From the NCBI GenBank assembly GCA_963664225.1, contig OY760937.1:320001-384000 (forward strand): a stretch of 64,000 nucleotides of DNA. Reading direction: 5' to 3'. The stretch is from Verrucomicrobiia bacterium (GTDB lineage Bacteria > Verrucomicrobiota > Verrucomicrobiia > Limisphaerales > UBA1319). The notes under the pieces are model-generated. The model was not told the origin of the DNA. It worked only from the letters and a program-made list of their open reading frames with translations, and ran no database searches. Made by a program: the position numbers and the translations under genes. Shown here one piece after another: positions 16,973-20,258 of this stretch; position 1 is the first letter of the stretch, and each line of letters opens with the position of its first letter.

Positions 16973-17159
16973 CGACGCTGCAGACGGTGAATCAAATTCG
17001 CATCCGGCATTGCAGCACGATCCGAATAGGCCCGAGGACGTGCTGAAGGTCGATGTGGACGAAGACGGCAACGGCGGTGATGATACGGCCGATGCGCTAC
17101 GATACCTGATTGCGAGCAAGGGGAGGGCGATGGCGGTCAGGAAACTGATAGGGGTGTGA
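16973..17159 (+). pseudogene. Probable C-terminal remnant of a phage terminase large subunit
   Basis: PALQHDPNRPEDVLKVD...GGDDTADALRY resembles the terminase nuclease end (DD..DALRY); upstream RRCRR* lies in a shifted frame. Confidence 0.6.
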
Positions 17160-17256
17160 TCAATGCAAAGGTCGGCGAATGGAGGCTGCCGATGATGTTC
17201 GATTTGTTTCCTGCGCTGAACGGCTGGCTCCCGTTCGCTGGACCGTATGGTTCGGC
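17158..17256 (-). other. Degenerate attC site
   Basis: R'' GCCGAAC, about 99 bp, R' decayed to ATTGATC; the upstream ORF reads through it (PNHTVQRTGASR). Confidence 0.7.
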
Positions 17257-17627
17257 CCTGTCTTGTGCTTCCAGAACTTGAAGCATCTCCAGTAGAATAT
17301 CTCGTTGTCGATCTTCACGCCCCACCAGTATGGTTTCAATTCGCAGATTGTCACGGGCAGATTATCATTCCTCGGACTAGTCGCCAGAACCCATGTGCGG
17401 TTTGTACGGTAAAAACTGCCGATGAAGTCACGGTACGATTCATCCTCGATTACAAGATCCAAGCTACCATGGGAAAAGTCCCAGCAGACATGGCCAATAG
17501 CCCCTACGCGGCCATCGTCTTCGTAGCGACCCACCGGTGACGGTGGTCCAAGCAACAACGCCAGCAGCGTGGCCGCAGCCAGTGACAGGGCTACGGCAAA
17601 TTTAACACGTTTGCGGTCTGAATACAC
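17160..17627 (-). CDS. Gene-cassette hypothetical protein (signal peptide or TM)
   Basis: GTG start 15 nt after the GTTAGGC of the upstream attC; ends within an attC. Confidence 0.7.
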   Translation of the reverse strand: MYSDRKRVKFAVALSLAAATLLALLLGPPSPVGRYEDDGRVGAIGHVCWDFSHGSLDLVIEDESYRDFIGSFYRTNRTWVLATSPRNDNLPVTICELKPYWWGVKIDNEIFYWRCFKFWKHKTGPNHTVQRTGASRSAQETNRTSSAASIRRPLH

Positions 17628-17642
17628 AGGTTGTGCGAATGC

Positions 17643-17740
17643 GCCTAACGCCAGAACTCACACACGCCGGGCCAATGACGTGAACCGGGAAGCGGAACTG
17701 CGACGGCCATCCGGCGTTGTGTGCAGTGATTTAGTTATGT
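17643..17740 (-). other. Intact attC site (98 bp)
   Basis: ACATAAC (contains the upstream gene's TAA)...CACACAACGCCGG...CCGGCGTGTGTG...GTTAGGC, an imperfect palindrome. Confidence 0.92.
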
Positions 17741-18184
17741 CTTGTCCCCATTTGAAAAATAAACGTCCCACCAAACTCCAATGCCGAGTTTTCCAAGACT
17801 AAGCATCTGCTGCGGGTTCAAACAGGGACCACCCTGTCCGCTGGATAGCCAGTATGAAGTGATGTCGATTTTGCAGCCGCGGCGGTGAATCTCCTCAACC
17901 CCTGCGGTCCTTCCTTCCAGCGAAGTTGCGATCATGTCAATGTGGCGGCGCGTATCCTTCGAGTCGCATAAATTCTTTGTGGTGTTAAACCACCCATTGG
18001 CTTTTCGGCGGAGTCGTCCCTGAAAATGGCTCTCTCCCTTCCGAAAACTGTCCGTTGGTTCGATCTGCAAAAGTTTGGTGATCTCCTCTGGGGCAAGATC
18101 GTCTGAAAATACTCGAAGTGTCGAATATGTCTCGATACACGTCGGATACGAATCGTCGTAGTCAGTGTGATGCGCTTCAGACAT
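17735..18184 (-). CDS. Gene-cassette protein, DUF4279-like
   Basis: ATG lies inside the GTTATGT core; LAPEEITKLLQIEPT motif; stop codon inside the attC R''. Confidence 0.8.
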   Translation of the reverse strand: MSEAHHTDYDDSYPTCIETYSTLRVFSDDLAPEEITKLLQIEPTDSFRKGESHFQGRLRRKANGWFNTTKNLCDSKDTRRHIDMIATSLEGRTAGVEEIHRRGCKIDITSYWLSSGQGGPCLNPQQMLSLGKLGIGVWWDVYFSNGDKT

Positions 18185-18330
18185 AACTTTGATAATGCGA
18201 CCAGCAGTCCGTAGCTTGGACCGGTCTGAACCCATTCTTAATTCGTCGCATATACGGGGTTTAAACCCTTTACCACTGCTGGTCAACATCAGAGGTTCGC
18301 CCCCGCTGCCTGGCCGGTGCGACAGCGTGA
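18181..18330 (-). other. Putative attI plus cassette-promoter module, copy 1 (no integrase)
   Basis: Homologous to 19926-20079; homology stops at CAAA-GTT; the core GTTATGT is the exact complement of the cassette's R'' ACATAAC. Confidence 0.7.
18258..18286 (-). promoter_or_regulatory. Sigma70-like cassette promoter TTGACC-N17-TAAACC
   Basis: Both hexamers and the spacing are conserved in copy 2 although the spacer sequence diverges. Confidence 0.7.
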
Positions 18331-18433
18331 GAAAAGGCTGAGAGCTGAGGGCAGAGGGCAGTAGTCAGGCCAACACGCCATTTCCAATGGCATGGGCACG
18401 AGATTAATGACTCCATGAGGGAGTGATGTTGTT

Positions 18434-19765
18434 CTATTTCCCGGTGTTTTCGATCCGGTAGAGGTGCGTCTTTGTTCTCAGGTAAATGGCTTTATCCTGG
18501 ACGGCTGGTGAGGCAAGGGAGCCTGTATCGAGAATGTTGGTGGCCAGAAGTTCGTAGGTGCGGCCTGGTTTAACGACAAAGGTTTTTCCCTGCTGATTGC
18601 AGAAATAGATGCGGCCATCGGCGTATATTGGAGATGAAGCATAGGCGCCAGCGATGCGTTCGCGCCAGACCTGGACCCCGGTTTCGGGTTCCAGGCAGGT
18701 GATCATGCCATCATCGCTGATCATGTAGAGGAGGCCATTGACGAGGATGGGCGACGCGGTTTTTGAAACCATCTTGTCATATCTCCACGCGACGTGCGTT
18801 TGGGTCACGTCCCCCTGGCCATCTGTTTTAACAGCCAGCATTTCTGTTTTACCGCCAAATCCCGAGATGAATATGGCCAGACCTTTTGTGCACACAGCCA
18901 TGGAGGATGCCGACCAGGCATCGTATTGAACACGCCAGAGTTCCCTGCCGGTGCGTGGGTCGTAGGAGTAAGCCGCCTTGGCCCCGGGAATCAGCATCTG
19001 TAATTTGTCATCGGTCCTGATGATGATCGGCGTGCTGTGGGCCTTGCGGCGGTCCCCGTCGCGAGTCATCTGGTCCGTGGCATTCTCGTCATTCCAAGCC
19101 ACAGAACGGTCCGTTTTCCACACGGTTTTTCCGGTGGTTTTGTCCAGGGCCACCATGTACTGGAGATCCACGCCGTCCATGGTCAGGATGAGCAGATTTT
19201 CGAAAATAATGGGGGAGGATGCGGGTCCGCGGTAGTGGCGGCATTTCAGGTCGGTGCGTTCCCAGATGGTCTTGAAGCTGGTGGAATCGATGCAGGCAGT
19301 GCCGTAGCTCCCAAAATGAATATAAACGCGGCCAGCTTCGATGGCTGGGGAAGGGGTCGCATAGCTGTTGACGGAGTTACCCTGGGACTCCGGGTTGTCG
19401 CAATGAAACAGTTTGTTGGTGAAAAGGACCTTGCCAGAATCGGCATCCAGGCAGAAGACATAAAAATCATGGCCGTCCACCGGCGCGGTTGTCAGCCAGA
19501 CCTGCTTGTTCATGATGGCCGGGGTGGACCAGCCGCGGTCGGGGATTTCCGTTTTCCAACTGATATTATTGGTTTCACTCCAGGTCAATGGAAGGCCGAT
19601 GGCCGGAGCATTTTCCAATGCCAGAACATGGCCATCACCCGTGGGACCGCGGAATTGCGGCCAGTCGGCCTGCAATTGGGCGCCACCCGCCAGGGTCAGG
19701 AGCAGGAATGCCATACAACCGGCTGTGGAGTAACCGTTTGAAGGTTGAACTGTGTCGTTTTTCAT
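18434..19765 (-). CDS. PQQ-binding-like (BamB-type) beta-propeller protein
   Basis: Signal peptide, DWPQFRGP, repeated SSP...G...W blades. Confidence 0.9.
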   Translation of the reverse strand: MKNDTVQPSNGYSTAGCMAFLLLTLAGGAQLQADWPQFRGPTGDGHVLALENAPAIGLPLTWSETNNISWKTEIPDRGWSTPAIMNKQVWLTTAPVDGHDFYVFCLDADSGKVLFTNKLFHCDNPESQGNSVNSYATPSPAIEAGRVYIHFGSYGTACIDSTSFKTIWERTDLKCRHYRGPASSPIIFENLLILTMDGVDLQYMVALDKTTGKTVWKTDRSVAWNDENATDQMTRDGDRRKAHSTPIIIRTDDKLQMLIPGAKAAYSYDPRTGRELWRVQYDAWSASSMAVCTKGLAIFISGFGGKTEMLAVKTDGQGDVTQTHVAWRYDKMVSKTASPILVNGLLYMISDDGMITCLEPETGVQVWRERIAGAYASSPIYADGRIYFCNQQGKTFVVKPGRTYELLATNILDTGSLASPAVQDKAIYLRTKTHLYRIENTGK

Positions 19766-19802
19766 ATGTTAAAAAGTGATAGCGATGCCTGGCATGACGT
19801 GA

Positions 19803-19919
19803 TCAGCCGCCAAAGCCAACGTCTCCAAGCTGCGCGCCGTAAAAATGAATGACCAGCAAAACGAGAACGACAGGATTCGCCAGTGCAACCGCGCGCTTCA
19901 ATTGTGGCGTTGGATTCAT
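19803..19919 (-). pseudogene. 38-aa ORF, probably a truncated cassette
   Basis: MNPTPQLKRAVALANPVVLVLLVIHFYG... starts 6 nt after the GTTCGAG core; no attC follows. Confidence 0.4.
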
Positions 19920-19925
19920 GGTTTG

Positions 19926-20079
19926 CTCGAACTTTGCTTATGCGACCAGTGGTCCAGATCTTGGACCGGGCAGAATCCATTAATAAATCGTCGCATGTAC
20001 GAGGTTTAGAGCCTTTTCCACTGGGGGTCAACACCAGAGGTTCTGTCCGCCCCGCTGCCTGGCCGGTTCGAGATCGTGA
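19926..20079 (-). other. Putative attI plus cassette-promoter module, copy 2 (no integrase)
   Basis: Aligns with 18181-18330; ends GTCGCATAAGCAAA-GTTCGAG. Confidence 0.7.
20003..20031 (-). promoter_or_regulatory. Sigma70-like cassette promoter TTGACC-N17-TAAACC
   Basis: Same hexamers and spacing as 18258-18286. Confidence 0.7.
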
Positions 20080-20258
20080 TGGGAGAAGAGGCCAGAGGGC
20101 AGAATGGATAATGGCAAGAATGGAAAATGGATAATGGAATAAAAAAGGCATTGACGCACGTCATCATAATGACCTTATTCCAAAGGAGCAGGGGTGTTGC
20201 GAGCGCCGGATTTATTGAAAGGTTTGAGAGGTGGTGCCGCGTGGGGTTGGCGCAAGGA

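Follow-up and report, generated by a model that had tools for sequence, protein, structure and literature searches.

A repeated family of putative integron attI-type heads in a verrucomicrobial assembly without an integron integrase

Integrons are usually drawn with one integrase, one attI site, and one promoter. Clusters of attC sites without an integron integrase (CALINs) have been described (Cury et al., 2016; PMC4889954), and the same source holds that the attI site is unknown for most integrons and not searchable. In this work, we have analysed a stretch of 64,000 nucleotides (the window) of a Verrucomicrobiia bacterium of the order Limisphaerales, which spans positions 320,001 to 384,000 of contig OY760937.1 in assembly GCA_963664225.1. 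The window carries two copies of a non-coding unit, each directly upstream of an open reading frame (ORF), and the same unit is repeated across the genome. We read these units as integron attI-type heads of cassette arrays, with a probability of about 0.7. Positions are those of the window unless they are given as genome positions.

Three other described systems are close to these units. The attI-ORF-attI and attI-gene-attI arrangements, together with attC-gene-delta-attI, are known in class 1 and class 2 mobile integrons, where they are reported to be recombination-proficient (PMC12901181). Promoter-bearing cassettes without a gene have been described in Vibrionaceae superintegrons (preprint 10.1101/2023.11.21.568050). 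Integrases have also been described to place cassettes outside att sites, at GTT-containing positions of the genome, and such cassettes are expressed when they lie near promoters (preprint 10.1101/2022.09.11.507474). A full-text literature search, which covered papers without their supplements, found nothing on attI heads present in several chromosomal copies, nor on solitary attI sites in genomes that lack an integrase.

The array in the window is similar to a CALIN in that it has a strong attC site (17643-17740) and a weak one (17155-17256) with no integron integrase (IntI) in the genome, and the other loci of the genome fit as well. However, CALINs are defined by attC alone, whereas the arrays in this genome have at their front an attI-type head that is repeated, recognisable, and joined to a promoter-like stretch. 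The units are similar to an integron platform in their crossover (...CAAAG/TT, where the slash marks the proposed crossover), in the GTTRRRY-like letters that follow it, in the cassettes downstream, and in the TTGACx-N17-TAAxxx pair upstream. They differ from a platform in being multi-copy and without an adjacent intI gene, and their hexamer pair belongs to an intergenic module and is about 70 nt away from the crossover.

The delta-attI arrangements are matched by layout only. A gene for a PQQ-type propeller protein lies between two attI-type sites in the window (head 2, PQQ gene, head 1), two similar cases are found at genome 1959-1962 kb, and one head (genome 1957631) lies after an attC site. 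The delta-attI1 core given in that source (AAACAAAGTTRRRY) is one letter apart from that of the unit (AATCAAAGTT). As described there, the delta-attI sites belong to mobile integrons of classes 1 and 2 with an integrase, and most of them keep 14-18 nt of attI, whereas full heads of about 110 nt occur here at many chromosomal loci without an integrase. The promoter cassettes of Vibrionaceae are also non-coding modules in arrays that could restart the transcription of downstream cassettes, but as that preprint presents them they end in attC, and the unit itself is not an attC site. The cassettes described at genomic sites of the SALIN/attG type are similar in lying outside a complete integron and in using a nearby host promoter. 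Their targets, by that preprint's account, are scattered genomic sites, whereas the target here is a conserved repeated module.

The two units in the window are as follows.

18185..18361, minus strand: head unit copy 1 (type A), core 18187-18298
19930..20102, minus strand: head unit copy 2 (type A), core 19932-20043, 5' extension to about 20102

Both units are non-coding and are about 80% identical. Their gap-free direct repeat covers 114 nt at 82% identity (18185-18298 vs 19930-20043), and two more matching blocks lie past it (30 nt at 90% and 23 nt at 83%). When copy 1 was used as the BLAST query against the genome, copy 2 was found at E 2e-32. A preceding sequence-only reading of this DNA had described two diverged copies of a non-coding unit, and these comparisons confirm it with slightly longer limits. 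Both copies carry TTGACC-N17-TAAACC, as that reading had noted, and the second hexamer lies 70 nt before the G of ...CAAAG/TT. In copy 1, TTGACC is at 18286-18281, TAAACC is at 18263-18258, and the crossover G is at 18187, followed by TTATGT. In copy 2, TTGACC is at 20031-20026, TAAACC is at 20008-20003, and the crossover G is at 19932, followed by TTCGAG. Both copies finish with ...GTCGCAT(T/A)A(T/G)CAAAG/TT, and the sequence beyond is unrelated. Each copy directly precedes an ORF on the minus strand.

The genome, which is a single contig of 5.78 Mb, has 15 heads at about nine loci. There are 11 full heads (type A) and four diverged heads (type B). The BLAST search with copy 1 returned 13 matches in the genome. 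The profile search of the core returned the 11 full copies, one 5' half, and three matches to the last ~50 positions only; the fourth type-B head is at genome 4119665. The units are thus a dispersed multi-copy family, as had been proposed. Up to four heads lie within 5 kb, interleaved with cassettes. The type-A copies exhibit 76-97% mutual identity. Fourteen of them (the 11 of this genome and three from metagenome contigs of a relative that is 90-94% identical) align without gaps over 112 nt, and TTGACC, TAAA, TAYATGCGACGA, CCGGT.CAA, and CGC are invariant among them.

The boundaries of the heads were mapped by an all-against-all comparison of 600 nt upstream and 30 nt downstream. The 3' limit is sharp. 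Pairwise homology stops 0-11 nt past the G, so the end at GTT claimed for the window copies holds in nearly all copies genome-wide; the sole exception is a pair inside a larger inverted duplication. The 5' limit is ragged and mosaic, with end-points at -101 to -106, at -140 to -175, and at -450 or -600. The type-B heads have a common upstream region of 217 nt of their own and share only the last ~40 nt with type A. All heads therefore share only the crossover-proximal stretch, and the common part is the stretch beside G/TT, the proposed recombination site.

Cassette turnover behind the heads was seen between this genome and the metagenome contigs. Contig L076 matches genome 1958-1960 kb in its upstream flank (93.8%) and in a downstream cassette (93.5%). 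The stretch between these two matches holds, in the contig, a head and three cassettes that are absent here, and this genome has a head-ORF-head stretch and two other cassettes instead. In contig L074, a head sits about 365 nt away from a chromosomal gene, and the counterpart of this gene in the present genome is without a nearby head. The contigs of four DNA runs that were compared with the region gave only cross-mapping of other unit and attC copies, and no usable polymorphism was found in them. An attC site directly upstream of a head has model support in one case only (genome 1957802-1957894, followed by the head at 1957631). Remnants of attC drawn by eye upstream of the heads at genome 221964 and 1959116 are unsupported by the covariance model.

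Several other repeats lie beside the heads. The 5' edge of type-A heads has heptamer-like units (CCCTCAG / CCCTCTG on the minus strand) repeated in tandem a variable number of times (18339-18361 and 20080-20135 in the window and genome about 1960010-1960080), with up to about ten units at one locus. Many heads are immediately preceded by a high-copy repeat (about 110-150 nt; ...ATCCCGAAGGGATTAAATCATTCAGACCNGGGTTGC...CCCGGG...), which also recurs at dozens of sites elsewhere in the genome; examples of it are found at genome 846330-846437, 1754853-1754958, and 1960183-1960325, and in L076:2170-2322. About eight tandem repeats with a period of ~296 bp (genome 1734251-1736451) lie directly upstream of the head at genome 1736579, and the same repeat precedes the head of L074. 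An inverted duplication (genome 1736579-1738038 vs 1756608-1755149) contains a head, two cassettes with attC, and a 171-aa ORF; its arms are about 97% identical and 18 kb apart. The type-B heads carry GGAGAAATG and then a short open frame toward the crossover (genome about 4881800-4881950 and 1679530-1679690, and also 4119780-4119880), and this frame could encode a leader peptide spanning an attI-like site. The GC skew of the genome is unusual, being +0.05 to +0.08 from 3.6 Mb through the record start to 1.2 Mb. The remaining stretch (1.2 to 3.6 Mb) is near zero, and neither half is negative.

Real attC sites lie downstream of the heads. Four similar sites of ~93-98 nt emerged from a scan for palindromes in the neighbourhood of the units. 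Their consensus fold exhibits a 4-bp R''/R' stem (xAAC/GTTx), unpaired spacers of 5 nt, an L stem whose 5' arm has two extrahelical bases, and a variable loop, and compensatory changes were found in nine of the 21 pairs. Two covariance models were built, R1 from these four seeds and R2 from 28 sites, and at E up to 1 they matched 16 and 28 places in the genome, respectively. Among the 28 sites, 22 lie on the same strand as a head and no more than 2.5 kb downstream of it, where 0.09 would be expected by chance. At least one attC lies within 2.5 kb downstream on the same strand in 12 of the 15 heads. The intervals between consecutive sites are 315-613 bp, with one small ORF apiece. The check proposed beforehand, whether other copies are followed by cassettes, thus came out positive for most heads. 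The behaviour of an attI-type head, namely a sharp 3' boundary at G/TT with attC-bounded cassettes on the same strand downstream, is supported by these observations.

The strongest support for the head reading comes from relatives that have an integrase. Eight such relatives were each searched with the 100 nt upstream of their own intI-adjacent crossover. Extra solo copies of the intI-adjacent attI region were found in four of the eight (one in G006, two in G039, two in G043, and four in G024). None was found in G001, G017, and G057, and G048 gave only a weak match of 27 nt. The solo copies are homologous from 30-70 nt inside the 5' end of intI up to a point 4-6 nt beyond the crossover G, where the similarity breaks off. 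Of the eight solo copies that were fetched, six (L104, L105, L106, L116, L117, and L118) have one or two attC sites behind them and two (L113 and L114) have none. In genomes with one integrase, a bona fide attI region thus also occurs as solo heads, which belong to separate arrays. The same pattern of solo heads is present, next to an apparently functional integrase, in these four relatives, and the head family described here is therefore not an oddity of one assembly.

The array in the window has the following further features.

19803..19919, minus strand: possible 38-codon hydrophobic ORF, uncertain as a gene, 10 nt past the copy 2 junction, read from the sequence alone
18434..19765, minus strand: 443-aa secreted PQQ/BamB-like beta-propeller gene (Pfam PF13360, E 1e-19)
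17735..18184, minus strand: cassette 1, 149-aa DUF4279 protein (Pfam PF14106, E 1e-17; ORF map)
17643..17740, minus strand: canonical attC of cassette 1, 98 nt, R'' ACATAAC ... R' GTTAGGC; the spacers (5 nt) are unpaired, and the 5' arm has two extrahelical bases
17160..17627, minus strand: cassette 2, 155-aa ORF with no Pfam family (ORF list, Pfam)
17155..17256, minus strand: weak attC overlapping the end of cassette 2, R' ATT and not GTT (covariance models R1 and R2)

The order on the minus strand from 5' to 3' is head 2, the possible 38-codon ORF, the propeller gene, head 1, the DUF4279 cassette with its strong attC, and the 155-aa ORF with its weak attC. A divergent gene for a CvfB-like S1-domain protein lies upstream. 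The ATG of the DUF4279 gene follows the GTT of head 1 immediately, and its stop codon lies within R'' of the attC. The reverse complement of the copy 1 junction (GTTATGT) is identical to R'' (ACATAAC) of the attC at 17740-17643, just as the sequence-only reading had observed. This attC scores 82.7 bits (E 8e-21) with R1, of which it is one of the four seeds, and 71.4 bits with R2, which also includes it. The weak attC scores 11.4 bits (E 1.9) with R1 and 24.7 bits with R2 (E 0.027 genome-wide and E 1e-4 within the locus). It is probably decayed and marks the end of the array. The claim that each unit opens onto a cassette stands for copy 1, which is followed by the DUF4279 gene and its attC, and fails for copy 2, which is followed by the PQQ gene without an attC. 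The PQQ gene is bounded by the two heads. Its protein has 11 matches in the genome, itself included, and no attC lies beside the five homologues of the gene that were fetched from relatives.

The junction ends of the units resemble those of known attI sites when compared by eye. The comparison set consisted of the intI-proximal junctions of the eight relatives and attI1 from the public plasmid NZ_LN864819.1 (locus L097). Several of these come close to the unit, which ends with ...GTCGCATAATCAAAG/TT; examples are ...GCCGCATAATAACAATG/TT, ...GCGGCATAATTATAG/TT, and, in attI1, ...GTCGCCCTAAAACAAAG/TT, but the alignment scores are not above those of shuffled controls. The kinship to attI1 and to the class 1 PcS promoter that had been suggested for the units is thus reduced to a resemblance. 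The case for attI therefore rests on position and behaviour.

TTGACC-N17-TAAAYC is invariant in all 14 type-A copies and most likely represents an outward-facing cassette promoter, as judged from the hexamers themselves. Our confidence that the units act as promoters is lower than our confidence that they are attI-type heads. The promoter proposed beforehand is retained as far as the conserved hexamer pair goes and is not called by a sigma-70 scan.

A number of results weigh against reading the units as attI-type heads with an outward promoter. The best z of a unit against attI1 is 3.1 among the 14 units, with the others below 2 relative to shuffled controls. Against the attI sites of the eight relatives, z exceeds 3 in one of 40 comparisons, and that match is out of register. 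G/TT is kept in 10 of the 15 heads, and TT is lost in the other five, in two of them by one letter (GT and CT) and in three by more. A sigma-70 consensus scan does not report the TTGACC/TAAAYC pair, and the -10-like hexamer is without its final T. The covariance models give no attC in the segment behind copy 2, even with the filters off. For copy 2 and another three heads, the genes that follow show no attC within 1.5 kb or before another head is reached. The seeds of the attC models came from the neighbourhood of units, which may bias the models toward that attC subfamily. The six-frame search of the one-contig assembly with TIGR02249 found no integron integrase, with the best score being 82 bits against a cut-off of 265, and no match was obtained at E 1e-40, although a plasmid outside the assembly is possible. 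No head copy adjoins an integrase. BLAST of the unit gave no match in 60 relatives. A pattern scan of representative genomes gave 44 loci, which is about the number expected by chance, and the unit profile extended none of them past the pattern. The attI sites diverge fast, and the failure to find attI homology is weak evidence because of this.

The integrase bears on two earlier proposals. The units had been viewed as pads served by an IntI in trans, and this assembly has no IntI to serve them. A copy of the unit next to intI had been named as a check, and none was found in the genome or, for the unit itself, among the 60 relatives. A search with tblastn using the IntI of relatives (E up to 10) returned only Xer-like recombinases that are without the extra IntI segment, and no intI remnant was found. 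The tyrosine recombinase gene at genome 5336447-5337439 was considered as IntI and rejected, being Xer-like and without the extra IntI domain. A diverged type-B head (genome 5336156-5336220) lies 250 nt downstream of this gene in the same orientation and is followed by a 427-aa ORF and an attC. Three adjacent tyrosine-recombinase genes at genome 2794562-2797271 resemble a recombinase trio. Among the 60 relatives, 22 have an IntI over the TIGR02249 cut-off, and five of the nine family members searched are among those with such an IntI.

The rival explanation that survives best, although we consider it unlikely, is that the units are debris of many separate integrons, each with its intI deleted, and were never pads that shared one enzyme. 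The solo heads of relatives do retain 30-70 nt of the 5' end of intI. The genome of the same genus (G001) has a broken intI that falls below the TIGR02249 cut-off, being split into two frames with a garbled catalytic end (L089:5489-6833), and G043 has two complete intI-attI copies. However, this explanation has to account for 15 heads in one genome, with up to four of them interleaved with cassettes within 5 kb, and no intI remnant is present by the six-frame hidden Markov model search or by tblastn. It also needs one deletion after another to have ended inside the first 70 nt of intI. The 76-97% identity among the type-A copies points to multiplication of the head itself. Despite the broken intI, the attI of G001 still heads a cassette, whose R'' (GCCTAAC) is the exact complement of the junction GTTAGGC.

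Improbable, and less favoured than debris, is the explanation that the unit is a dispersed genomic promoter or repeat that offers a good secondary target of the attG type, in which cassettes have landed in a SALIN-like manner. Integrases are described to insert cassettes at GTT-containing genomic sites, with expression near promoters (10.1101/2022.09.11.507474), and high-copy repeats often flank the unit upstream. However, the insertion is always at one position of the unit, and the sharing of only ~40 nt beside the crossover between type A and type B is left unexplained. In addition, the solo heads of relatives are copies of the true intI-adjacent attI region.

It is very improbable that the unit is a shared promoter with a structured 5' leader, that is, the cis-regulatory RNA of a regulon unrelated to recombination. 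The unit does immediately precede ORFs and is on their coding strand, there are invariant blocks past the -10-like box, and its sequence allows a 7-nt inverted repeat (ATGCGAC/GTCGCAT) and a small hairpin. However, none of the 16 predicted pairs exhibits a compensatory change among the 14 copies, and the two window copies fold differently with z of only -1.6 to -2.0. No Rfam family matches the units, either at the gathering score, where the sole match in the window is a tRNA, or at E up to 1, where a sub-threshold Chloroflexi-1 match lies inside the PQQ gene. The homology stops at G/TT and not at a ribosome-binding site, and the downstream genes are unrelated cassettes.

The unit is hardly a miniature inverted-repeat transposable element or the end of an insertion sequence, an outcome that the sequence-only reading had itself raised. 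The copies are multiple and dispersed with other repeat families beside them, but neither window copy is flanked by terminal inverted repeats, the 5' limits are ragged and mosaic where the 3' limit is exact, and no transposase is adjacent. Two further identities were tried and rejected. The unit is not a long attC, in that the upstream AAC is absent in three of the 11 copies, neither covariance model matches a unit, and no attC-like fold is present. A likeness of the unit end to a dif arm was also considered, and a short pattern for dif-like palindromes gave no site that resembles the unit.

The attI-type head reading can be set out as a sequence of events. The unit would be a double-stranded attI-type recombination site with the crossover between G and TT of ...GTCGCATAATCAAAG/TTRRRY, preceded by about 100 nt of conserved sequence that includes TTGACC-N17-TAAAYC. 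An integron integrase would have put attC-bearing cassettes in at G/TT by attI x attC recombination, at a time when the lineage still had an integrase or when a mobile element supplied one. The head would have become multi-copy and dispersed, and a head downstream of another recombination site may move with its flank in the manner of a delta-attI cassette. At present there is no integrase, and the heads would be orphaned and slowly decaying. Their remaining role is probably to keep the fixed cassettes transcribed; copy 2 would do so for the PQQ-propeller gene.

The locus is best read as an integron platform that has been reduced to repeated attI-plus-promoter heads and orphaned here, an unusual scattered form of a known gene-capture system. 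The term distributed integron, under which the units had been placed, is in agreement with the relatives, where the intI-adjacent attI also occurs as solo heads, and not with this genome, which has no integrase to serve such a system. A broader and tentative proposal, which we hold to be possible but doubtful, is that of a multi-headed integron in this verrucomicrobial order. Here the promoter and attI block of ~100-170 nt would itself be portable, would be moved by the integrase like an attI-type cassette, and would seed short arrays around the chromosome. One integrase, or a transient horizontal one, would serve many pads, and every pad would have a promoter to itself. Many of the elements listed as CALINs would then be working heads and not wreckage, and those of this genome would have outlived the integrase as promoters.

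CALINs are treated as silent leftovers because attI is unrecognisable outside classes 1-3. In this genome, a chromosomal attI-type head is recognisable through its own repetition, and nearly all cassette arrays begin with one. Should the heads be active both as promoters and in recombination, the expression of cassettes would no longer fall with distance from a single cassette promoter (Pc). In that case CALINs could be genuine landing pads, and attI sites could be identified by computation as repeats that stop at G/TT. The heads would thus offer a directly testable integron system outside Proteobacteria.

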